Assembly: GCA_963695175.1 (NCBI GenBank)
Contig: CAVOGG010000006.1
Location: 38,052 to 102,051 of the forward strand
Reading direction: 5' to 3'
DNA: 64,000 bases
From: an uncultured Actinomycetota bacterium
GTDB lineage: Bacteria > Actinomycetota > Actinomycetes > Actinomycetales > Dermatophilaceae
This document shows positions 6,276 through 28,421 of this stretch, piece by piece. The notes under the pieces were generated by a model. It was not told where the DNA came from and did not search any database. It worked only from the letters and a program-made list of their open reading frames with translations. Each line of letters starts with the position of its first letter. The stretch's first letter is position 1. Position numbers and translations under genes: made by a program.

Positions 6276-8367
6276 TCAGCCGGTGACGACGACCTCGTCG
6301 AGCCAGGCCCGGCGCTTGCCGCTGTCGTCGGCGTTGAGCTTGGTGAACCACACGACGATGTACTGGCCGCTGACGTCGGCGGGGACGTCGAAGGTGACGG
6401 TGCCGTCGGCATCCGCCTTCTCGCCGATCTTGGTGGCGCCCTCGAGGCGGTTGTCGGGCCCGACGTAGACCTCGATGTCGCTGGGGTTCGGGAGGTTGAG
6501 CTCGACGGTCTGCGGCTTCTTGTTCGGGCCGAGGTCGACGATGACGCCCAAGCCCTTCTTGAGGCCGCCGAAGGTGTCGGAGCGGTAGTTCTCGGAGAAC
6601 CAGCCGGTGCTGGTGTCGCCGTCGTAGATCTTCGGGGTGAGCTTGTTGTTCTCGGCGCCGTCGCCCTCGGGGTCGTAGGCCTCGACCTTGAGGATGGCGA
6701 GGGGCTCGGGCGGGGCGCCGGTACCGGTGCCGGTGGGCGAGGCGGACCCGCTGGCCGACGGCGCCGCCGAGGAGGGCGCGACCGTGGTGGTGCGGGTGGC
6801 CGGCGCGGCCACGTCGCCGAGACCGGCGCTGCCGGACCCGATGCGGGAGACGCCCCACACGCCGATGACCAGGGCGAGCACGACGAACGCGACGACGATG
6901 CCCAGGGCCAGCTTGGACTCGTCCTTGGTGAGCGGCTCGGCCGGAACCAGGGGAGCAGGCGCCTCGAGGTCGCCGGAGTCGGTGCGCGGGGCGGTGTCGG
7001 GGCTGAGCTCGGACACCTTGTCGACGGCCCGCCGAGCCAGGTTGCCGACCCGCCCGCCGACCGAGCCGAACGCGCCGACCACGGCGGCGCCGGCACCCGC
7101 GGCCGCGGCACCGGCCGAGCGGCTCGAACCGTCGGCGCGGTCGGCAGTGTCGGGTGACACGGCGACGGGCTGCAGGCTGCGGGTGGTGGCGTCGGCCTCG
7201 GGGTCGGCGGCGGGGGAGGCCACCGGGGTCGCGCTCAGCCAGGCCGGGGCCGGGGCGGCGACCTGGTTGACCCGGGTCGTCGCGTCGGCCTCGGCGTCGG
7301 TGGGCGCGGGGGCGGCTGCGACGGCGTCTGCCCCGCTGGCGGATGCCGCGGTGGTCCAGGCGGGGCTTGCGGATGCCGTGGTGCCGGATGCCGTGCTGCC
7401 CGCCACCGCCGCTGCGGCAGCGGCACCGCCCACGACGGCGGCACCCGGGCGGCGCGTCGAGCGGGCGACGGCGCGGGCCGGTGGCCGCAGCGCCGTCGGC
7501 CGGCGAGGTGACGACGACCGGCTGCTCCAGGGTGTCGGGCGTGTCAGGCGTGCCGGCGCTGCCGGGGGCGGGGCCGCCAGCATCCCGCGCGGTGCGGGCG
7601 ACGGGCTGCCCCATGACCTGGCGCGAGGGCCACGGCGCCACCTGGCGGGCGTAGTCGCCGGGGCTGGTGGGGCCCTGGTCGTCGTTGAGGGTGAGGCGGC
7701 AGATGGCGTCGAGGTCGCGGGGCACGCCGGCAGCGATCTCGGAGGGGGCGGCGACGCCACCGGGTACGCGCGGGGCCGGGCCGAGGCCACAACCACCCGC
7801 GCCGAGTGGCCAGAGGCCGGTGAGGCCGGCGTAGGTGAGGGCGACGACGCCCACGGCGTCGCGGCGGGCGGCATCCTCGGCCTCGGTGCCGTCTTCGCCG
7901 GCGCGCACGGCGGCGGTCTCGAGGCCGCGCAGCCGGACGTCGCCGTCGGGGGTGCGCAGCACGTCGTCGGGCTTGAGGTCGAGGTGGTGCATGCCGCGCT
8001 GCCCGGCCGAGTCGAGGGCGGCCGCCACCTCACCGGTGATGCGGCGCACCTCGTCGCCGGGCACCCCGCCGTCACCGACCAGCTCGGCGAGCGTGCGGGC
8101 CTCGCCGAGGTCCTCCTCGATCACGTAGGAGACGCCCTCGTCGGTGCCGACGTCGAGGATGCGCACGAACGCCCCGTGGGTGACCGAGGCGGCCCGGCGC
8201 GCGGCATCGAGCAGGGCCGCGGTGCGGTGGTCGTCGGAGGCGATGCAGAGCAGCGAGACGGTGCGCCCGAGGGTGGTGTCGTCGGCCGACCAGCGCTCGG
8301 TGCCGTGCAGCTGCTCGAGCCGACGGCGAACGGTGTAACGGCCACCGAGGACGGTTCCGGGACCCAC
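6276..8367 (-). CDS. Membrane protein with N-terminal (pseudo)kinase-like domain and C-terminal extracellular beta domain; one frameshift near 7440-7520
   Basis: GTVLGGRYTVRRRL...LRTPDGDVRL kinase-like N-terminus in one frame; low-complexity linker, TM helix and AYDPEGDGAEN...WFSENY...VWFTKL domain in another. The span is 3n+1 long. Confidence 0.8.
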
Positions 8368-15489: not shown

Positions 15490-16820
15490 GCCGGGGCTGG
15501 GCCCACGGGCCCTCGCGCGGCGCACCACCCCTCGACCACGATGGTGCGGTGAGCCCGCCCGACCGACCCTCGCCGTGCGCCCACCGCGAGGCGGGCGTGA
15601 CGTCGCTGGAGTTCGTCGGCATCTTCCTCGTCGTCGGGGCGGTCGTCGCGGCCATCGCTCTCGCGCTCAACGGCCAGCGGGTCACCGCCGAGACGGCGTC
15701 GGCCCTGTGCTCCATCACCGGGGGCAGCGGGTGCGGGGCGACCGGCGGTGACGCGACCGCCGGCGATGCGACCGGCTCGACCGGCTCGGGCGACGGCCCG
15801 GTGACGGCGCCGTGCGTGGGCGCGCCGAGCGGCGCGGCCGGCCCGGTGCGTGGAGTGGTGCCGGTGCGCGGCGGCGGCACCGACGGCCCCGGCCTGCGCG
15901 TCGCCGTCATGGGCGACGGCACCTTCCGGGTGTCCGGCGCCGCCAGCGAGCGGGCCGCCGACACGACCTGGGTCGGCCGCACCTTCGGCCCGGCCGCTGC
16001 CGGCGCCGAGCCGTTCCTCACCGGTGGTGACCCGCACGTGTGGGCCGCCTCCTCACCCGCGGCCCTCGCCGAGCTCGTCGCGGCCGGCCGCACCTCGGCG
16101 TGGAGCGACTCCCTGGTCGGGGACGACGGGTCGGTGGTCTCACAGGTCGCCGATGCCGCGATGGGCCTGGTCGGCGGGTCGCGCGGCCTGCCCACCCCGA
16201 CCGCCGTCTACACCGACACCAGCGCCGAGGCCGGCCTGTCGCTCAACGCCTACGAGCAGACCCTCGCGCTCGATGCCGGCGGTGAGGCGGTGGGCACGCT
16301 GCGCCAGGCCGACGGGTCCACCACGCAGTACGTCGGGGTCAGTGAGACGCCCACGCAGGGCGTCGCCCGGGCGGACGACCTGGTGCCGATGCTGCTCGAG
16401 GTCGACCGCGGTCCGTCGGGCGAGGTCACCTCCGTGCGCACCGTCACCGACCACGACCTCACCGCCACCGGCACGACGACGCGCTCGGGGTCGCTGCACG
16501 TCGTCCACCTCGGCGTGACCGGGGCGGACGAGCCCGTCATCGCGGCCCTGGCGTCATCGCTGGGGTCGAGCGACCTCGGCACGCCGGCGTCGTCGCCGAG
16601 CGGGGCGCCGGTCCCGCTCTCGCAGAGCGCTGCCGGCTTCACCCGGGCCGCGACGGCCGGCGGGTACGTCACGCGTCAGGAGCCCGCCGGTGAGGTGGTG
16701 GTCGACGACCCCAACGCCCCGCCCCTGACGGCCGGCCTGGCACAGGTGATGCGGTCCGCGGCACCCCAGTCGTGGGACGGCGCCACCTGGCGCCCTCGCA
16801 GCGTGGGCTGCGCCTCGTGA
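15486..16820 (+). CDS. Flp/Tad prepilin-like N-terminus fused to a large extracellular domain (paralog A)
   Basis: REAG|VTSLEF cleavage motif with Glu at +5, hydrophobic helix, LCSITGGSGC Cys pair, long Gly/Thr-rich beta-like domain, terminal Cys. Confidence 0.8.
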   Translation: MSRGWAHGPSRGAPPLDHDGAVSPPDRPSPCAHREAGVTSLEFVGIFLVVGAVVAAIALALNGQRVTAETASALCSITGGSGCGATGGDATAGDATGSTGSGDGPVTAPCVGAPSGAAGPVRGVVPVRGGGTDGPGLRVAVMGDGTFRVSGAASERAADTTWVGRTFGPAAAGAEPFLTGGDPHVWAASSPAALAELVAAGRTSAWSDSLVGDDGSVVSQVADAAMGLVGGSRGLPTPTAVYTDTSAEAGLSLNAYEQTLALDAGGEAVGTLRQADGSTTQYVGVSETPTQGVARADDLVPMLLEVDRGPSGEVTSVRTVTDHDLTATGTTTRSGSLHVVHLGVTGADEPVIAALASSLGSSDLGTPASSPSGAPVPLSQSAAGFTRAATAGGYVTRQEPAGEVVVDDPNAPPLTAGLAQVMRSAAPQSWDGATWRPRSVGCAS

Positions 16821-17515
16821 CCGGAGCGCTCGCGGCCGGGCTCCTCGGGGCGCTCGCCGGTGGGCTGGCCGGCGCGCTCGCCCACCGCTACCTCAGGACC
16901 CGTCGCTACCGCTACGCCGACGAGTCGGGGCTGCCCGAGCGCGACACCCGGTGGGTCCTGGTCGTCACCCCGCTGGCCACCGGGCTGGTCGCGGCGGGGC
17001 ACGTGCCGGAGCGCCCGGCGCTCGGCGTGCTGCTCGCGGCATCCGTGCCGGTGCTCGCCGTGCTCAGCGCCATCGACCTCGACACCCGCCGCCTCCCCGA
17101 CCGCTGGGTGTTCCCCTCGTCGGCGGCCGCCCTCGCCGGGCTGGGTGTCGTGTCACTGCTCGAGGGCTCGACGGCCCCCCTCACCGCGGGCCTCGTGGCG
17201 GGCGCCGTGCTCGGCGCCTTCTACCTCGTCAACGTGGTCGTCGGCGAGCTCGTGGGCAGCGGGGGCGGGATGGGGCTCGGTGACGCCAAGCTCGGGGTGC
17301 TGCTCGGCCTGCTCCTGGGCCCGCTGTCGTGGGCGCACGTCGTCGTGGCCACCGTGCTCGCGTTCCTCGCCGCGGGGGTCCAGGCCGGGTGGATGGTGCT
17401 CGGGCGCGGGGCGGGGCGGGGCGCGCACCTCGCGTTCGGCCCGCACATGGCGGGTGCCGCCGTGGCAGTGCTCGCCGCCCCAGGGGTGGTCGCCGTCGTC
17501 GAGGCGGTCGGATGA
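16817..17515 (+). CDS. Prepilin peptidase (A24 family, TadV/CpaA-like)
   Basis: AIDLDTRRLPD and GMGLGDAKL catalytic Asp motifs, LAFGP C-terminal motif, multiple TM helices. Confidence 0.92.
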   Translation: MTGALAAGLLGALAGGLAGALAHRYLRTRRYRYADESGLPERDTRWVLVVTPLATGLVAAGHVPERPALGVLLAASVPVLAVLSAIDLDTRRLPDRWVFPSSAAALAGLGVVSLLEGSTAPLTAGLVAGAVLGAFYLVNVVVGELVGSGGGMGLGDAKLGVLLGLLLGPLSWAHVVVATVLAFLAAGVQAGWMVLGRGAGRGAHLAFGPHMAGAAVAVLAAPGVVAVVEAVG

Positions 17516-18768: not shown

Positions 18769-19575
18769 ATGTCGTTGTCGATCTGTGTCGTCGATCCTTC
18801 GCGTGCCACCACCGAGATCGAGGACTGGGGTTTCGGCGACGACGTCGCCGTCGTCACCGGGCGGCTCGGCGGCCCCGCGCTCGCGGCGCGGCTGCGTCCC
18901 GGCATCCGGCCCGGTTCCCGACTGGTCGTGCTGCACCGCCCGGCCGACCTGCCGGCGGCGGCACTCGTCGCCAACGTCGTCTCCGGTGCCCTTCCCCAGC
19001 TCGCGGTGACCCGTCTGCCGGTGGGGTCGAGCCTGCTGGGCGCCACCGTGCTCGGCCTCGAGGCGGCGCGCATCGAGGGGGAGTCGGACGGCACGCGGGT
19101 CACCCGGCTCGCCGGCACCCTCGACGGCGCCACCAGCGGCGCGTGGCTGTCCCGCGTCACCCGGCTCGCCTCGCCGAGCCCGAGCTTCGGCCAGCACCTG
19201 CGCTCCCTGCTGCCCGGCGGCCCGCGCTTCGTCGCCGTCCACGGGCCGCACGGCGGGGTGGTCCGGGCCGAGCCCGACGGGTACGACGGGTCGTCCTCGG
19301 GCCGGCTCGTCATCGGCGCCCCGGCCGACTCCGTGGCCGCCGAGCAGCTGCGAGCGTGGTACGGCAGCGACGACGTCGTGCACGTACCGCCGGTGCTCGC
19401 CGACGCCCGCCTGGTCTACGGCAACGCGGGGGCTGAGTTCACCGTCGTCACCGAGGCGCTCGCCGACCCCGGCCCGGTGGTCGGCACGTGCCCCGTGTGC
19501 CACGACGCGCTGCACGGCACCGCCTGCGCGTTCTGCCACGTCAACCCCCGCACCACCGAGGAGAGCACCGCATGA
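18769..19575 (+). CDS. Hypothetical protein with C-terminal zinc ribbon, first gene of the tad operon
   Basis: ATG 18769 after GGAG/AGGA; candidate -10 TAAACT at 18707-18712; CPVC...CAFC motif; ATGA overlap with cpaB. Confidence 0.72.
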   Translation: MSLSICVVDPSRATTEIEDWGFGDDVAVVTGRLGGPALAARLRPGIRPGSRLVVLHRPADLPAAALVANVVSGALPQLAVTRLPVGSSLLGATVLGLEAARIEGESDGTRVTRLAGTLDGATSGAWLSRVTRLASPSPSFGQHLRSLLPGGPRFVAVHGPHGGVVRAEPDGYDGSSSGRLVIGAPADSVAAEQLRAWYGSDDVVHVPPVLADARLVYGNAGAEFTVVTEALADPGPVVGTCPVCHDALHGTACAFCHVNPRTTEESTA

Positions 19576-20303
19576 ACCCCCGCCAGCGCCGAGGGCTGCT
19601 CTTCGTCCTCGTCTCGTTCGTCGTCGCGGTGGGCACCTTCTTCGCCGTGTCCGCCTACGTCGCGAACGTCAACTCCCAGGTGGGGTCCCGGGTGACCGTC
19701 TACCAGGCGCGCCAGGCGGTCGGCGCCTACACGCCGCTCGGCCCCGACAACCTCGAGGCCGTCGAGGTGCCCGAGCGCTGGGTGTCGAAGTCGTCGGTGC
19801 TCTCGCTCGACGAGCTCCAGGGCCGCCGGATCGGCTTCCGGCTCAACCCCGGCACGACCGTGAGCTCCGACATGCTCATTCCCAGCAGCGCGCTGTCGTC
19901 CACCGAGCGTGAGGTCGCCATCAACGTCGACTCCGTCACCGGAGTGGCCGGCCGCGTGCGCCCCGGTGACCGCGTCGACATCTACGCCGTGTTCGCCGAC
20001 GTGCCCGGGCTCCCGAAGTCGGTGCGCATCCTCGTGCGCGACGTGCGCATCGTCTCCATCGCCGGCGAGCAGACGGTCACCCAGAGCAGCGCCGCGGGTG
20101 GCACGGCGGAGCAGAAGGTCATCCCCGTCACCCTCGCCCTCGAGCCCGACCAGGCCCTGTCGGTCTCGTACGCGGCGGCGTTCGCGGCCGAGGTGCGCCT
20201 CGTGGCCCTGCCCAACGACGTCGGCACCAACCGGCAGGGCGAACCGAACAACTACGACGCCTCCGAGCTCGGTGGCAAGGCCGTTCTCGAGAAGGCGAAC
20301 TGA
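19572..20303 (+). CDS. cpaB: Flp pilus assembly protein CpaB (RcpC/TadC-associated SAF domain)
   Basis: N-terminal TM helix, SAF-like domain, GVAGRVRPGDRVDI motif, VTLALEP. Confidence 0.92.
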   Translation: MNPRQRRGLLFVLVSFVVAVGTFFAVSAYVANVNSQVGSRVTVYQARQAVGAYTPLGPDNLEAVEVPERWVSKSSVLSLDELQGRRIGFRLNPGTTVSSDMLIPSSALSSTEREVAINVDSVTGVAGRVRPGDRVDIYAVFADVPGLPKSVRILVRDVRIVSIAGEQTVTQSSAAGGTAEQKVIPVTLALEPDQALSVSYAAAFAAEVRLVALPNDVGTNRQGEPNNYDASELGGKAVLEKAN

Positions 20304-22084
20304 TGCGCATCCTCATCGGCATGTCGAACGGGACCATCGAGTCCGACCTGAGGTCGCTGCTCGAGGAGCTCGACGACACCCAGGTCATCGGCGTCGCGCA
20401 GACGAGCAGCATGGTGCTCGACTACGCATCACGGCTCGACCCCGACATCGTCGTGCTCCACGAGCACCTGGGGCCCGAGCCGGTGCTGCAGACCATCCGC
20501 GACTTCGGCGCGCGGCACCCGAGCGTGGCGGTGCTCGAGGTCTCGGCCGAGCGCACGCCCACGACCGTCATCCGGGCGATGGAGGCCGGCGCCCGCGGGG
20601 TCATTGCGCACCCGTTCGCGTTCGAGGACCTCTCGGCCAAGGTCACCGCGGCCAGCGACTGGTCGCGGCAGATGAAGCGCATCCTCGCCGGTGCCATCGC
20701 CCAGGCGGGCTCGGCCCGCGGCAAGGTGATGGCGGTGGTCGGCGCCAAGGGGGGCGTGGGAACGACGACCCTCGCGACGCATCTGGCCCTGGACCACCTG
20801 ACCGCCAACCCCAACCGGCGGGTGTGCCTGGTCGACCTCGACTTGGAGAAGGGCGACGTCAGCGCGGTGCTCGACGTGCGGCAGGCGGTGTCCATCGCCG
20901 ACCTCGCGAAGGTGCACCAGGACCTCTCCGGCAGCACCGTCAACGACGCCGTCGTGCAGCACGAGTGCGGCCTGAACCTGCTGCTCGGCCCGGCCGACGT
21001 GCGGCTGACCGAGCTGATCACCGCAGAGGCGCTGCGCCCGATCTTCGCGCTGCTGCGCCGTGAGTTCGACCTCGTCGTCGTCGACGGCGGCGGCTCGGTC
21101 TCGCCCGCCCAGGCCTCGGTCGTCGAGCTCGCCGACGAGACGGTCGTCGTCACCACCGCTGACGTGCTCGCGGTGCGGGCGATGCGCAAGCGGATCCTCG
21201 CGTGGGAGGCGCTCGGCGTCACCGACGAGAGTGCGCTGCGGGTCATCGTCAACAAGGTCGACCGCTCGAGCATCTTCCCCGCTTCCGCGGTGGCCCAGCT
21301 CACCTCCGCCGTGGTCCTCACGGCGACCGTTCCGTTGTCGGTGCGCGCGCTGGAGCCGGCGATGAACGAGCGCGACCCCCGCGCCGTCACCGAGGTGGCG
21401 TGGTGGCGCCTGATGACCCAGCTGCGGCGCGAGCTCGACCTCGAGGACGCCCGGCCGGCGGCCGTGAAGCCGTCGCGCGGGGCGCGCGGTCGTCGGCCCG
21501 CCGAGCGCGAGCATGAGGTCCCGGCGGCGGGAACGGCGGGCGAGGAGCAGAACGCTCCCGCCGGCTCGGTGGCCCGGCTGGGCCGGCGCGGCGGCGTCCG
21601 GGGCGAGCGGACTGCAGCCCCGGCCTCCGAGGTCGCCGCCGCCGCTGCTGCCGCGGAGGCCGCTGCCGCCGCCGCCGAGGAGGCCGCTGCCGCCGCTGCG
21701 GATGCCGCGGCAGTCGCCGAGGTCGCCGAGGTCGGGGGACGCCGCCGGCGCGAGGCCGGCCAGGTGGCCCTGGAGAACGTGGTGCTGCTCCCGCTCATCC
21801 TCTTCATCGCCCTCGCGGCGTGGCAGGTGGTCGCCATCGGGCTGACCTTCGTCATGTCGGGCAACGCCTCGCGGGTCGCGGCTCGCGAGTACTCGGTCAC
21901 CGGCAGCCAGTCCAGCGCCCAGGCGGCGGCTCGCGACCGCTCTCCGTGGGCCTTCGACGACCTCACCGTCTCGGTCTCCGGCGACGAGGTGACCGTGCGG
22001 ATGCAGATTCCCGCGGCCGGCCCCGCCAGCCTGAAGTTCCCCCAGCAGCTGACATCGACGCGGTCGGCGGTGAGCGAGCGATGA
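20303..22084 (+). CDS. cpaE: CpaE/TadZ-like protein (receiver + MinD-like ATPase) fused to a C-terminal TadE-like pilin
   Basis: Receiver-like N-terminus, GAKGGVGTTT, LVDLDLEKGD, VVDGG; Ala/Glu-rich linker; RRREAG|QVALEN prepilin motif, TM helix and AAREYS TadE motif, with no stop in between. Confidence 0.85.
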   Translation: MRILIGMSNGTIESDLRSLLEELDDTQVIGVAQTSSMVLDYASRLDPDIVVLHEHLGPEPVLQTIRDFGARHPSVAVLEVSAERTPTTVIRAMEAGARGVIAHPFAFEDLSAKVTAASDWSRQMKRILAGAIAQAGSARGKVMAVVGAKGGVGTTTLATHLALDHLTANPNRRVCLVDLDLEKGDVSAVLDVRQAVSIADLAKVHQDLSGSTVNDAVVQHECGLNLLLGPADVRLTELITAEALRPIFALLRREFDLVVVDGGGSVSPAQASVVELADETVVVTTADVLAVRAMRKRILAWEALGVTDESALRVIVNKVDRSSIFPASAVAQLTSAVVLTATVPLSVRALEPAMNERDPRAVTEVAWWRLMTQLRRELDLEDARPAAVKPSRGARGRRPAEREHEVPAAGTAGEEQNAPAGSVARLGRRGGVRGERTAAPASEVAAAAAAAEAAAAAAEEAAAAAADAAAVAEVAEVGGRRRREAGQVALENVVLLPLILFIALAAWQVVAIGLTFVMSGNASRVAAREYSVTGSQSSAQAAARDRSPWAFDDLTVSVSGDEVTVRMQIPAAGPASLKFPQQLTSTRSAVSER

Positions 22085-22425
22085 GACGCCGCGGCGAGCG
22101 CGGCACGGCATCCCTGGAGTTCCTGGCCCTCGGGCCGTTCGTGCTGCTCGTCGGCTTCCTGGTGTGGCAGCTCGCGGTCGGGGCCTGGGCCGCGACCTCC
22201 GCCAACGAGGCCGCCCGCGCCGCTGCCCGCGCGGCCAGCCTCGGCCAGGACCCCGGCCGGGCCGCCGAGCGCGCCCTGCCCGGCGGGCTGCGCAACCACA
22301 CCCTCACCGGGGGTCGGTCCGGCGACGGCTACCGCTACACGGTGCGGGTCGAGGTCCCGGCCTTCTCCGCCGTCGGGCTCGACCCGGTGAGCCGCACCGT
22401 CGAGATGCCGGCGGAGCGACCGTGA
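22081..22425 (+). CDS. tadE: TadE-like minor pilin
   Basis: ERG|TASLEF prepilin motif, TM helix, ANEAARAAARAAS. Confidence 0.88.
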   Translation: MRRRGERGTASLEFLALGPFVLLVGFLVWQLAVGAWAATSANEAARAAARAASLGQDPGRAAERALPGGLRNHTLTGGRSGDGYRYTVRVEVPAFSAVGLDPVSRTVEMPAERP

Positions 22426-23750
22426 GCAGGTCCTACGGCTCGTTCATCGGCGCCGCGGCGGCCGGGCGGGTCGGCACCGAGGACGACTCGCTGATCACGA
22501 CCTTCCGTCGCCTCCTCCTCGAGGAGGTCGACCTCCACGAGCTGAGCAAGCTCGAGCCGAGCCAGCGTCGCGCGCGCCTGGAGCGCGTCATCGCCCACCT
22601 CGTCTCGCGCGAGGGCGTCATCCTCTCGACGAGCGAGCGCAACCTGCTCGTGCGGCGGGTGGTCGACGAAGCGGTCGGCCTCGGTGTGCTCGAGCCGATC
22701 CTCGCCGACCCGACGGTGAGCGAGATCATGATCAACGGGCACGAGACGATCTACGTCGAGCGCAGCGGCCGGCTGGAGCGGTGGCCCAGCGGGTTCACGA
22801 ACGAGGAGCAGCTGCTCCAGACGATCGACCGCATCGTCTCCACGGTCAACCGGCGCGTCGACGAGTCGAGCCCGATGGCCGACGCCCGGCTGCCGGCCGA
22901 CACCCGGATGCCGCGCGGTGCCCGCGTCAACGTCGTGCTCCCCCCGCTCTCCCTCAACGGGCCCACGGTGACGATCCGGCTGTTCCCGACCGCCATCTCG
23001 CTCCCGCGCCTCATCGAGTGGGGCTCGCTCAACGCCGACCTCGCCGCGCTGCTCCAGGCCTGCGTCGAGGCACGGCTCAACGTCGTCGTGTCCGGCGGCA
23101 CCGGCTCGGGCAAGACCACGCTGCTCAACGCGCTCTCCAGCTTCATCTCGACCAAGGAGCGCATCGTCACCATCGAGGATGCCGCCGAGCTGAGCCTGGA
23201 CCAGCCGCACACCATCCGCCTCGAGACCCGCCCGCCGAACATCGAGGGCCGCGGGCAGGTCACCATCCGCGACCTCGTGCGCAACTCGCTGCGCATGCGA
23301 CCCGACCGGATCATCGTCGGGGAGTGTCGCGGCGGCGAGGCGCTCGACATGCTGCAGGCGATGAACACCGGCCACGAGGGGTCGCTCACCACGGTGCACG
23401 CCAACAGCCCCGGCGACGCCCTCGCCCGGCTCGAGACGCTGGCCACGATGAGCGACGTCGAGGTGCCGTTCCACGCCATCCGCGACCAGGTGAACTCGGC
23501 CATCGACGTCATCGTGCAGCTCAACCGGCACTCCGACGGTGCCCGGCGGGTCGTCGAGACCTCCTACCTGGCCTCGCGGCGGCAGGAGGACTTCGACCTC
23601 GTGCCGCTCGTCACCTGGGACCCGATGCACGTCGACGACGTCGCCCGCACCCGCGGCCGGTTCGTCACGCACCAGGTGCCTGAGGCGCTGCGGCGCCGGC
23701 TCGCCGAGGCGGGCGTCGCGCTCCCGGCCTTTCTGGAGCAGGCGTCGTGA
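22422..23750 (+). CDS. cpaF: Tad pilus ATPase CpaF/TadA
   Basis: GGTGSGKTT Walker A, TIEDAAEL, LRMRPDRIIVGE Walker B, AMNTGHEGSLTTVHANS His boxes. Confidence 0.97.
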   Translation: MSRSYGSFIGAAAAGRVGTEDDSLITTFRRLLLEEVDLHELSKLEPSQRRARLERVIAHLVSREGVILSTSERNLLVRRVVDEAVGLGVLEPILADPTVSEIMINGHETIYVERSGRLERWPSGFTNEEQLLQTIDRIVSTVNRRVDESSPMADARLPADTRMPRGARVNVVLPPLSLNGPTVTIRLFPTAISLPRLIEWGSLNADLAALLQACVEARLNVVVSGGTGSGKTTLLNALSSFISTKERIVTIEDAAELSLDQPHTIRLETRPPNIEGRGQVTIRDLVRNSLRMRPDRIIVGECRGGEALDMLQAMNTGHEGSLTTVHANSPGDALARLETLATMSDVEVPFHAIRDQVNSAIDVIVQLNRHSDGARRVVETSYLASRRQEDFDLVPLVTWDPMHVDDVARTRGRFVTHQVPEALRRRLAEAGVALPAFLEQAS

Positions 23751-24667
23751 TCGCCGCCATCTTCGTCGGCGCCGTCGCCGCGGCCGTTCTCGCGCTGCTG
23801 GGCGTGCGGGAGTTCGGCCGGGCCGCCCGCGACCGGCACGTCGCCATCACCGGCGCCGAGACCGGCCTCACCGACGACGAGCCCAACCTGCTCGAGGTGC
23901 TCGACCTTCGCTTCCGGCGCACCCGGGCCGGCCGGTGGCTGGTGCGCGAGCTCGACGTCGCCGGCATCAACCGCCGCCCGTCGGTGGTCTTCCTCGGCGG
24001 GCTCGCGGTCGGCGTCATCGGCTCGGTCCTGTTGTGGACGCTGCTCGCGCCGCTGCTCGGCGTCATCGGGAGCCTGCTCGGCCTGCTCGCCGTGCGCGCC
24101 TACCTGCGCCGGGCCCGCGAGCGCCGCCGGGAGGCCTTCGTCGGGCAGCTGCCCGAGCTCGCCCGGGTGCTGGCGAACGCCAGCTACGCGGGCCTGTCGC
24201 TGCCGACCGCCATCGCCATCGCCGGCGACGAGCTGCCCGAGCCGGCGCGCACCGAGCTGTCGCGGGTCGCCACCCGGTTGCGCTTCGGGTCGCCGCTCGC
24301 GCGGGCGCTGGAGGAGCTGCGTGAGCGGGTCGGGTCGCGAGAGACGTCGGTGCTCATCTCGACGCTCGTCGTCGCCTCGCGCAGCGGCGGCTCGCTCGTC
24401 ACGGCCCTGCGCGACATCGCCGAGACCCTCGAGCAGCGCAAGGAGACCCGCCGCGAGGTGCGCACCGTGCTCGCCCAGCCGGTCGTCACGTCGTACTTCG
24501 TCATCGTGCTCGGTGTCGTCATGCTCCTCATGCTCAACGTGATGCAGCCCGGCACGGTCGACAAGATGACCCGCCAGCCGCTGGGGCAGGTCGCGCTCCT
24601 GCTCGCGTTCGCCATCTTCGGGTCCGGCTTCTACGCCATCCGCAAGATGACGAGGTTCGACATATGA
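23747..24667 (+). CDS. tadB: Tad inner-membrane platform protein TadB (T2SS F domain)
   Basis: FVGQLPEL, GGSLVTALRDIAE, TM pattern, position after cpaF. Confidence 0.9.
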   Translation: MIAAIFVGAVAAAVLALLGVREFGRAARDRHVAITGAETGLTDDEPNLLEVLDLRFRRTRAGRWLVRELDVAGINRRPSVVFLGGLAVGVIGSVLLWTLLAPLLGVIGSLLGLLAVRAYLRRARERRREAFVGQLPELARVLANASYAGLSLPTAIAIAGDELPEPARTELSRVATRLRFGSPLARALEELRERVGSRETSVLISTLVVASRSGGSLVTALRDIAETLEQRKETRREVRTVLAQPVVTSYFVIVLGVVMLLMLNVMQPGTVDKMTRQPLGQVALLLAFAIFGSGFYAIRKMTRFDI

Positions 24668-25569
24668 GCTGGCTGGTCGGCACCGTCCCCGGGGTCGTCG
24701 CCGCGGTGGCGGTCTACCTCCTGCTGCGCGGGTACCGGATGCTGCGCACCGACCCGGCCGCCGACCTCGCGGTCGAGGACATCGCCATCCTGCAGGGGGC
24801 GACGCAGAAGCGTGCCCGGTCGCAGGGACCGGTCTCCGCGGTCGCGTACCGGCTGGCCCCCCGGGTGCGACGGCTCCTGCCCGCGAATGCCGTGACCTTC
24901 CTGCGCCGGCAGGTCGACCAGGCCGGCCGCCCCGAGGGCATCGACGTCGACTCGGTCATCGCCCGCGGCGTCATGTGGATGCTGCTCGTGTCTCCCGCCG
25001 TGGTGATCTTCGTCCTGCAAGGCCGGTGGCTGCCCGTGCTGATGGCGCTCGCGGCGATCCTCGTCATGCCGCTCGCCCGGTTGTCGACCCTGGCCCGCAA
25101 GCGGCGCGAGCGCATCGACCGCGACCTCCCGGACTTCCTCGACGTGCTCGCCGTGACGGTGAGCGCCGGCATCGGCTTCCGCCAGGCCCTCGGCGTGGTG
25201 TCGGAGCGCTTCGGCGGTCCGTTGTCGGAGGAGGTCACGACCACCCTGCACCAGATCACGAACGGCGCGAGCGTGCGCTCGGCCTTCCGGGCCATGCGCG
25301 ACCGCAACACCTCCGAGTCGATCGAGGAGTTCACGACGGCCTACCTGCAGGCCGAGGAGCTGGGGGCGCCGCTCGTCGACACCCTCAACCAGATCGCCGC
25401 CGACATGCGGCGCGCCTCCGCGCAGCGCTACCGGCAGAAGGCGGCGGCCATCGCGCCTCGGGTCACGCTGCTCACCACGGTCGTCATGGTGCCCGGGGCG
25501 ATGATCCTGCTGATCGTCGGCCTCTACATCGGCTCCGACCTGGACCTCGGGTCGTTCGGTGGCATCTGA
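24664..25569 (+). CDS. tadC: Tad inner-membrane platform protein TadC (T2SS F domain)
   Basis: IDRDLPDFLDVLAVTVSAGIGF, ELGAPLVDTL, position after tadB. Confidence 0.9.
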   Translation: MSWLVGTVPGVVAAVAVYLLLRGYRMLRTDPAADLAVEDIAILQGATQKRARSQGPVSAVAYRLAPRVRRLLPANAVTFLRRQVDQAGRPEGIDVDSVIARGVMWMLLVSPAVVIFVLQGRWLPVLMALAAILVMPLARLSTLARKRRERIDRDLPDFLDVLAVTVSAGIGFRQALGVVSERFGGPLSEEVTTTLHQITNGASVRSAFRAMRDRNTSESIEEFTTAYLQAEELGAPLVDTLNQIAADMRRASAQRYRQKAAAIAPRVTLLTTVVMVPGAMILLIVGLYIGSDLDLGSFGGI

Positions 25570-27457: not shown

Positions 27458-27522
27458 TCTCGGTGTCAGGACGAGGACCGCAGGCCCTCGGACACCGGGG
27501 AATTCGGACCAAGGAGAACGCC

Positions 27523-27726
27523 ATGACCCACCAGCTCGCCGCTCGCTACTCCACCTACGCCGCCACGCTCAAGGACCGCCGCGAGGCCGGCCAGAACTCG
27601 CTCGAGTACCTCGGCATGGCGCTCGTCGCCGGCGTTGTCATCGCCGCCATCTACGGCGTCGTGACCGGCGCGGACGTGGGCGCGAAGATCAGCGACGCCT
27701 GGGCGAAGATCACCGGCGCGTCGTGA
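27523..27726 (+). CDS. flp: Flp major pilin (type IVc)
   Basis: 67 aa, AAGGAG RBS, REAG|QNSLEY Flp motif, hydrophobic helix. Confidence 0.92.
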   Translation: MTHQLAARYSTYAATLKDRREAGQNSLEYLGMALVAGVVIAAIYGVVTGADVGAKISDAWAKITGAS

Positions 27727-27735
27727 CGTCACCGG

Positions 27736-27773
27736 GTCGCCGGGACGGGGTCGACAGACCCCGTCCCGGCGAC
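27736..27773 (+). terminator. 17-bp perfect stem-loop after flp (attenuator or mRNA-stabilising hairpin)
   Basis: GTCGCCGGGACGGGGTC-GACA-GACCCCGTCCCGGCGAC. Confidence 0.75.
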
Positions 27774-27827
27774 TCGTGCGTCGGGGGGTCGCGACCGAAC
27801 CGCGCCGCTGAAGGGGAGGGAGGCGCC

Positions 27828-28421
27828 GTGCAGCACCGAATCCGTCGTCGTGAGGACGGCCAGGCGGTCACCGCCGTGGCCATCGTCGCCGTGCTCATCC
27901 TCGTGGCCGCCGCGCTCGGCATCGTCTTCCGCACGGGCAAGGTCACGAGCGAGGTGAGCAAGATCCAGTCCGGCGCGGATGCCGCGGCGCTCGCCGGGGC
28001 GCAGCAGGTGCGCGAGGACGCCCACGGCCGCATCGTCAGCTCGTTGCAGTCGCGCGTGCCGCGCAGCTTCTGGACGTGCGGCGACGGGCAGGGACGCGCG
28101 CAGTCGTTCGCCGGGCGCAACGACACCGACCTGACGACGTACTGCTACTACCCGCTCGCCGACCGCGTCGAGGCCACCGTGCGCAGCGACTTCGTCACCG
28201 AGACCGGAAGCCGCGAGAGCGCCTCCGCGGTTGCCGAGACCGGCCGCCGCCTCGGGCCGTGCATCGTGGTCGCCGTCCCTGGCTCGACCACCGGATACGA
28301 GACCACCGCCGACTGCGGCGACATCGTGGTGCGGGTGTACGTCGACACCACCGGCAACGTCACGCTGCTGACCACCCCCTCCGAGGTCAAGCGGATGTTC
28401 CGGGTCACGCTGCGCGAGTGA
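27828..28421 (+). CDS. TadG-like pilus-associated protein
   Basis: REDG|QAVTAV prepilin-like motif, TM helix, QSGADAAALAGA TadG-type motif, several Cys. Confidence 0.8.
   Translation: MQHRIRRREDGQAVTAVAIVAVLILVAAALGIVFRTGKVTSEVSKIQSGADAAALAGAQQVREDAHGRIVSSLQSRVPRSFWTCGDGQGRAQSFAGRNDTDLTTYCYYPLADRVEATVRSDFVTETGSRESASAVAETGRRLGPCIVVAVPGSTTGYETTADCGDIVVRVYVDTTGNVTLLTTPSEVKRMFRVTLRE

Follow-up and report, generated by a model that had tools for sequence, protein, structure and literature searches.

We analysed a stretch of 64,000 nucleotides from an uncultured Actinomycetota bacterium (Dermatophilaceae; contig CAVOGG010000006.1 of assembly GCA_963695175.1), hereafter called the window, and focused on one gene of its Tad (type IVc) pilus island. 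By sequence comparison, this gene was shown to encode a genuine, ancient single-chain fusion of TadZ/CpaE, the organiser ATPase of Tad pili, with a TadE-type minor pilin. The open reading frame (ORF) ran uninterrupted on the plus strand from the ATG at 20303 to the TGA at 22084 and encoded 593 amino acids (aa). The product comprises four parts, namely a receiver domain that appears atypical, the MinD/ParA-type ATPase of TadZ, a disordered linker and a pseudopilin module of the TadE type.

The two N-terminal domains corresponded to the domain architecture of TadZ. The initial annotation of this gene had recognised receiver and MinD-like domains, and both assignments held. The receiver domain (residues 1-120; 20303..20662, plus strand) matched Pfam Response_reg with 34.3 bits at residues 14-114. 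His54 was located at the position expected for the phospho-acceptor Asp, and His/Tyr replaced the conserved Lys when the homologue alignment was read by eye. Some homologues (Janibacter) had Asp at the His54 position, which was likewise read from the alignment and not from a structure-based residue mapping. The ATPase domain (residues about 140-377; 20720..21433, plus strand) matched Pfam AAA_31, ParA, CbiA and MipZ at residues 141-347, and its sequence matches in the PDB were ParA and MinD. The work of Xu and colleagues reportedly described a deviant Walker A motif, KGGxGxT[TS], in TadZ that lacks the second lysine of MinD. The motif was present here as GAKGGVGTTT (residues 146-155), and G147, K149, G150, G151, V152, G153 and T156 were invariant in 26 homologues. 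An AlphaFold2 model was built from a 26-sequence alignment. The predicted local distance difference test score (pLDDT) was about 90 for the receiver (1-120), where values exceeded 90, and also about 90 for the ATPase (140-377). When the whole model was searched against the PDB with Foldseek, rank 2 was 3fkq, a two-domain protein of Eubacterium rectale aligned over 404 columns, which we take to be the TadZ structure published by Xu et al. 2012. The remaining top matches were all ParA, MinD, FlhG or FleN. The Pfam and Foldseek results thus agreed on the receiver plus P-loop architecture of TadZ.

A hypervariable linker of about 100 aa followed (21434..21742, plus strand). The poly-Ala/Glu stretch that the initial annotation had noted after the ATPase was found within a low-complexity region at residues 380-480, approximately, and the pLDDT was below 50 at residues 383-443. 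The linker holds a species-specific, indel-prone poly-Ala/Glu repeat at about 21630-21715. None of its columns was conserved in the homologue alignment, and gaps were many. Its length was 27-107 aa in the 17 of 52 fused loci in which it could be measured, and that of the window was the longest. In the AlphaFold2 model, one long helix spanned the poly-Ala run and the membrane segment and was followed by a small alpha/beta body.

The C-terminal part was identified as a TadE-type minor pilin of 107 aa after the predicted cut (21761..22084, plus strand). It consists of the alpha-1 transmembrane helix and a body of about 60 aa, in which one short helix and three beta strands were recognised; a VxE is conserved at the C-terminus. 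The window copy stayed below the cut-offs of both family models, with 10.1 bits against 22.9 for Pfam TadE (PF07811) and 27 bits (E 4.9e-6) against 40 for NCBIfam TadE_Rv3655c (NF041390). The adjoining stand-alone TadE gave a nearly equal score with the NCBIfam model (27.7 bits). When a profile of 34 modules was compared with the neighbouring TadE by hhalign, the probability was 98.9% (E 1.6e-17, 91 columns). In addition, 22 of the 34 orthologous modules matched Pfam TadE at E <= 0.01, and the module of L045, a Solirubrobacterales locus, exceeded the cut-off. Because of the hhalign match to the neighbour and the 22 matching orthologues, we regard homology to TadE as secure, the window copy being divergent. 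Modelled alone, the module reached a pLDDT of 88.7, and the model showed a long helix at the N-terminus, a second, short one and three strands. A fold search of the PDB with the module gave nothing significant (best E 0.12), and a sequence-profile search of the PDB gave no match. A solved TadE-like structure seems to be absent from the PDB copy searched. The earlier reading of RRREAG|QVALEN, a transmembrane helix and a TadE body with no stop held in every detail.

The junction carried a prepilin-type processing site, RRRREAG486|Q487VALE491 (21743..21775, plus strand; the bar marks the predicted cut). Basic residues precede the cut, position -3 is acidic, and Gly and Glu occupy -1 and +5, respectively. 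Together with the hydrophobic helix, G486|QVALE491 corresponded to the TadE motif of G|xxxxE and a helix of about 20 residues. G486 and E491 were invariant in both homologue alignments (A1, A2). Site residues were counted in 268 proteins registered on a profile hidden Markov model, with no residue required at any position. Gly(-1) was present in 166/166 full-length fusions and in 40/41 stand-alone forms, Glu(+5) in 164/166 and 43/43, and Asp/Glu(-3) in 160/166 and 37/41, respectively. By these counts, conservation of the predicted cut site is as strict in the fusions as in stand-alone TadE prepilins. A motif scan found five prepilin-type sites in the window, all sharing R-E-[AR]-G|. They read RREAG|Q in the fusion, DRREAG|Q in Flp, GERG|T in TadE2, and HREAG|V and RRERG|A in two large Flp-fused proteins. 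The sites outside the fusion have the first bases of their Gly codons at 15594, 22102, 27589 and 32276. Between Flp and the fusion, the five residues preceding the cut and the +1 residue were identical (RREAG|Q). Co-variation between the flanks of the fused site and those of the next TadE site was also examined. Within-locus identities were 2.35 against 1.99 after shuffling, and 21 of 2000 shuffles reached the observed value. Relatedness and a few mis-registered sites confound this weak signal, to which little weight was given.

As a candidate class III signal-peptide substrate, the fusion was unusual. Instead of a short charged N-terminal leader, 486 residues including two folded domains precede the site. 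A cognate peptidase was found in the genome. The gene for an A24 (TadV/CpaA-type) prepilin peptidase (16772..17515, plus strand; Pfam Peptidase_A24 E 1.4e-11, residues 92-203) lies 3 kb upstream of the fusion gene, and its product has no methyltransferase-side domain in Pfam. Its real start may be internal to this ORF. A whole-genome scan recovered this gene and a second copy on contig C3. The peptidase of the island is presumed to be the processing enzyme for the fusion site.

Two readings that would deny a single chain were weighed against these data. One is that an indel in the GC-rich poly-Ala repeat joined two genes during assembly, an artefact against which the initial annotation had cautioned. 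The repeat is indeed indel-prone. L083, a more distant sister metagenome assembly (protein P0007, 560 aa), carries a 1-nt insertion in its GCC-rich poly-Ala repeat. When L083:2598-3300 was aligned to window 21400-22100, the extra base fell at about window 21697, and the frameshift hid the TadE module. This insertion breaks a fusion instead of creating one. Downstream of it the DNA still matched, with mostly third-position changes in the fused frame, and since these codons are conserved in that frame, the indel and not the fusion is likely the error. It is probably a long-read indel error, and it shows that the repeat is a weak spot for assemblers. In the 90% cluster of the fusion protein, eight sequences from independent assemblies (ENA, JGI/IMG and Logan) had a length of exactly 593 aa. 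The independent contig L084 kept the same frame through the junction with substitutions only, and more than 100 homologues of 500-600 aa aligned end to end with the fusion. The same single ORF was found in complete genomes and isolates of many genera, and the tree described below agreed with it. An artefact was rejected on these grounds, and its probability is negligible. The other reading is that two separate proteins are made. Translation of TadE1 would initiate within the linker, the long ORF being an accident of high G+C, or TadZ would end by a programmed frameshift. Chance long ORFs are common at 75% G+C, approximately the content of the window. The G+C content at third codon positions (GC3) was 0.77-1.0 along the fusion frame and was the highest in that frame across both flanking domains. 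Only in the linker did it dip, to 0.77-0.90; there the first-position value (GC1) dominated because of the Ala/Gly/Arg-rich composition. An ATGA at 21513-21516 in the other two frames was considered and rejected, since it would require two compensating frameshifts. A conserved internal start codon was also rejected. In 18 of the 52 fused loci (the window and 17 others), the 40 codons that precede G(-1) contained none of ATG, GTG and TTG in frame. Elsewhere upstream start codons were scattered with no shared position, and a Shine-Dalgarno-like sequence was nearby in only 6 loci. Moreover, the frame was kept over differing linkers in more than 160 proteins, which implies that read-through is under selection. 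Separate products are therefore very unlikely, and with neither a start before G(-1) in these loci nor a conserved one, the pilin module can be made solely within the long chain.

The initial annotation had treated the fusion as a peculiarity of one gene, and this did not stand. A homology search gave 342 relatives. Among the query and its 120 best homologues, the module was present in 120 of 121 proteins, the remaining one being a fragment. Their lengths were about 470-600 aa, and they included isolates and complete genomes of Phycicoccus, Janibacter, Branchiibius, Kineosporia, Arcanobacterium and Propioniciclava. The search for homologues with the same architecture, which the initial annotation had proposed as a check, gave more than 160 full-length proteins from Intrasporangiaceae to Streptomyces, Actinomyces, Solirubrobacterales and Euzebya. 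Reference genomes were scanned with one genome per species, and 80 loci were fetched. A single fused ORF was found in Nocardioides, Cellulomonas, Microlunatus, Streptomyces, Actinacidiphila and Promicromonospora, and also in Actinomyces oris, A. johnsonii, A. bowdenii, Solirubrobacterales, Euzebya and Egibacteraceae. The gene order cpaB-fusion-tadE2-cpaF-tadB-tadC was kept in about 60 loci, often with a kinase and a regulator next. When the module profile was searched against 1.84 billion representatives, 11,114 proteins matched at E <= 1e-3 and 1,140 at E <= 1e-10. The best 148 of these matches included at least 42 full fusions and 33 stand-alone prepilins whose leaders did not exceed 35 aa; the others look mostly like fusion fragments from short contigs. 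A close orthologue was patchy within the family, with a strong match in about 7 of 61 sampled genera. In six of them the frame was long and open, and in the other a contig end truncated it. Such patchiness fits the mobile nature of tad islands. No fusion homologue was found in the plasmid collection.

A maximum-likelihood tree of the TadZ parts was calculated for 63 loci, of which 59 were actinobacterial and 4 were a Chloroflexota/Dormibacterota outgroup. The fused form was present in 52 of the 59 actinobacterial loci, from three classes of Actinomycetota. These 52 and the 7 split loci formed one clade with 100/100 support. All 7 split loci were nested within the Streptomyces clade, the four outgroup loci were unfused, and the minimum number of changes between the fused and split states was 4. 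The nested split loci and the unfused outgroups point to one old fusion followed by a few fissions, which would be the simplest history. The scan and the tree together indicate that, in a whole class of actinobacterial Tad operons, the fused form is both ancestral and in the majority. In the split Streptomyces loci, tadE1 directly follows cpaE, and CpaE retains a leader-like RLRRGGGDRG tail. Where a tadE1 start could be assigned (L036, L044, L048), it overlapped the cpaE stop or lay 2-4 nt beyond it, and the leader was an ordinary one of 10-24 aa. In L025, L030, L036, L038, L044 and L048 (about 7230-7500), CpaE stops about 12 aa past the leader-like motif (RLRRGGGDRG-SLGPRPRRG...). In the split loci, tadE1 carries its own second copy of the leader, and the separation of the genes apparently involved a duplication of the junction. 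A different extension was observed in two metagenome-assembled genomes of Solirubrobacterales (L045:6001-8118 and L047:6001-8103). Their TadZ-TadE ORFs encode about 700 aa and add an extracytoplasmic domain of about 190 aa past the TadE body, with 'VWGGG...YDCSG' motifs. This domain resembles NlpC/P60 cell-wall hydrolases by eye only, and Pfam gave no match. If the resemblance is real, these proteins would be a minor pilin with a wall-cutting domain.

The surrounding island was complete. The fusion was encoded in the tad operon beside cpaB/rcpC and tadA/cpaF, and the genes from cpaB through the regulator were chained by overlapping stops and starts. Upstream, cpaB/rcpC (19488..20303, plus strand; Pfam RcpC E 5.3e-17, plus SAF) ends with a TGA at 20301-20303 that shares one base with the ATG of the fusion, forming TGATG at 20301-20305. 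Downstream, the fusion TGA (22082-22084) overlaps the ATG at 22081 of the stand-alone tadE2 within an ATGA at 22081-22084, so the overlapping start that the initial annotation had given to the next tadE was found as described. TadE2 (22081..22425, plus strand; 114 aa, MRRRGERG|TASLEF) scored 26.2 bits with Pfam TadE, above the cut-off. A GTGA overlap joins tadE2 to cpaF. The cpaF/tadA ATPase gene, tadB and tadC, with overlapping stops and starts, occupy 22422..25569 on the plus strand (Pfam T2SSE E 3.7e-65, T2SSF twice). A histidine kinase and a NarL-type regulator follow tadC up to 27390. The major pilin gene flp (27520..27726, plus strand; DRREAG|QNSLEY) was identified by a motif scan of the six-frame translation, and a gene for one large Flp-fused protein lies at about 15.1-16.8 kb. 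After flp, a TadG-like gene (27723-28421; Pfam Tad, PF13400) encodes RRREDG|QAVTA with no Glu at +5, which makes it likely that the product is bitopic in the membrane and stays uncleaved. TadZ and TadG thus occur together in the locus. These membrane-associated components were noted as alternatives in B. breve and M. luteus (Pelicic 2019, PMC6916266). Further TadE-like genes were observed in the same genome at C5:26476-26832, C2:250122-250460 and C3:28358-28684. With these and the second A24 peptidase on other contigs, the genome probably has more than one Tad or type IV filament system.

A mechanism can be proposed for the fusion. Prepilins in general insert their alpha-1 helix N-in/C-out. 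TadZ and the pilin would be translated as one protein, and the hydrophobic alpha-1 helix of the pilin would enter the membrane in the same orientation. Such insertion would tether TadZ in the cytoplasm by a flexible link of 27-107 aa, directly under the TadB/TadC platform, with the TadE body facing the cell wall. TadZ would then be held where the minor pilins, TadB/C and the peptidase meet. The A24 (TadV-type) peptidase of the locus would cut after Gly486. A mature 107-aa minor pilin would be produced, able to join a priming complex with TadE2 and Flp, and TadZ would be freed locally, 1:1 with the minor pilin. In this way the fusion would solve the targeting of TadZ in a monoderm without known polar landmark proteins, and it would couple machine assembly to pilin maturation. 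This course of events, with N-in/C-out insertion, tethering of TadZ at the Tad platform and a later cut at G486|Q487, is the explanation we prefer, at about even odds. The claim that the chain is a true polyprotein which a prepilin peptidase matures, and whose leader peptide is the entire 486-aa TadZ, falls just short of an even chance. The polyprotein cleavage that the initial annotation had proposed is consistent with everything computed, and its interpretation is thus partly supported.

A permanent, uncut tether was weighed as the alternative, and we consider it somewhat doubtful but a serious candidate. The TadE-like module would then be a transmembrane anchor and docking piece, keeping TadZ at the TadB/TadC platform and touching the growing pilus at its base, so that the cytoplasmic ATPase layer is linked to the pilus base. 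It would resemble GspL, the PilM-PilN fusion or a fixed form of the C-terminal membrane-targeting helix of MinD/FlhG. Such a tether has precedent. MinD/FlhG relatives have a C-terminal membrane-targeting element, and the anchor of the fusion stands at the same end of a MinD-type ATPase; GspL and the PilM-PilN fusion are uncut connectors from the cytoplasm to the periplasm. Further points weigh against cleavage or for a tether. None of the prepilin peptidase substrates known to us has a folded leader of such length (about 480 aa), and the bulky domain may lack access to the active site of the peptidase. Contacts with neighbouring pilins could account for the conservation of E(+5) while the chain itself is uncut. 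The flexible linker of 27-107 aa would suit a tether, and the retention of the fusion across three classes suggested that the covalent link itself has value. The basic, leader-like RLRRGGGDRG tail that the split Streptomyces CpaE still has hints at a role of its own for this segment. Finally, a PilM-PilN fusion, that of Clostridioides difficile, is cited by Pelicic 2019 (PMC6916266).

Against a tether, there is no obvious reason for an invariant Gly at -1 (166/166) and an acidic -3 (160/166) beside a freely varying linker. The charged Glu would be costly in a membrane helix unless it was used as in assembled pilins. In addition, the module of the split Streptomyces loci is a free prepilin with a short leader, so the link is dispensable. 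Cleavage is favoured because Gly(-1) and the acidic -3 are kept as strictly as in free prepilins, because the split lineages use the free short-leader form, and because a pilin that stays uncut would be unable to leave the membrane and enter a filament. Further indirect evidence for cleavage is the R-E-[AR]-G| motif common to the prepilin-type sites of the window, the A24 peptidase gene in the same island, and the lack of a conserved in-frame start before G(-1). The short leaders, with tadE1 starting at or just after the cpaE stop in L036, L044 and L048, indicated that the free mature pilin is the functional form in those loci.

Both halves, TadZ/CpaE and TadE/TadF, are known families, and among monoderm type IVc (Tad) operons this one is of the standard kind. 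What differs is their covalent union, with a class III signal-peptide site 486 residues into the chain, behind two folded domains. TadZ of Aggregatibacter actinomycetemcomitans and of E. rectale (3FKQ) and CpaE of Caulobacter have an atypical receiver, which the fusion appears to share, and in common with the fusion the MinD/ParA-like ATPase with a deviant Walker A motif and the gene position between rcpC/cpaB and tadA/cpaF. However, they are soluble proteins of about 350-520 aa with no pilin module, whereas the fusion adds the linker, the cut site, the transmembrane helix and the TadE body. TadE/TadF proteins, including M. tuberculosis Rv3655c (NF041390), have the same G|xxxxE site, hydrophobic alpha-1 helix and body of about 100 aa as the fusion module, which is paralogous to the neighbouring tadE. 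Their leader is N-terminal and about 10-30 aa long, in contrast to the folded two-domain 'leader' of the fusion. Processing of TadE/TadF pseudopilins by TadV is attributed to Tomich, Fine and Figurski 2006, as cited in PMC10191384. GspL of type II secretion, with its PilM-like domain, transmembrane segment and PilN-like domain, and PilM-PilN also combine a cytoplasmic nucleotide-binding domain, a single transmembrane helix and an extracytoplasmic domain in contact with the site of (pseudo)pilus assembly. Their actin-like PilM is unrelated in fold to the MinD-like TadZ, they have no prepilin cut site, and they are not thought to be cleaved. The amphipathic membrane-targeting sequence of MinD/FlhG likewise attaches the C-terminus of a MinD-family ATPase to the membrane. 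That element is reversible, peripheral and nucleotide-controlled, whereas the fusion has an integral transmembrane pilin helix, and its attachment would be reversed, if at all, by proteolysis. The TadB-TadC fusion of Micrococcus luteus tad-2 (PMC4322843) indicates that neighbouring, interacting Tad components do fuse in Actinomycetota, but it joins two membrane paralogues and not a cytoplasmic protein and a peptidase substrate.

No description of a TadZ/CpaE-TadE fusion or of a long-leader Tad prepilin was found in the full-text literature searched, which covered few subscription journals, and the reviews within it treat TadZ and TadE as separate components. Homologues of the fusion are named 'AAA family ATPase', 'response regulator', 'P-loop NTPase' or 'CpaE' in the databases. 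The architecture is thus widespread but overlooked. Thousands of entries named 'AAA family ATPase', 'response regulator' or 'CpaE' conceal a minor pilin, and Tad loci that apparently have a single TadE really have two.

How TadZ/CpaE is linked to the membrane platform is an explicit question for type IVc pili, especially in single-membrane bacteria; Pelicic 2019 (PMC6916266) asked how TadZ/TadG hold the Tfpc sub-complex together in monoderms. An ancestral fusion, retained in most actinobacterial operons of the type, tells us that at the membrane TadZ works jointly with one particular minor pilin. Were the chain cleaved, the substrate range of prepilin peptidases would widen from short leaders to a whole folded protein. 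This would, to our knowledge, be the first release of a functional cytoplasmic protein by a class III signal peptidase, and it would be a new coupling of pilin maturation with machine assembly. Monoderm Tad (type IVc) machines would then have a built-in delivery of TadZ to the platform, 1:1 with a priming minor pilin, across Actinomycetota including Streptomyces and oral Actinomyces.

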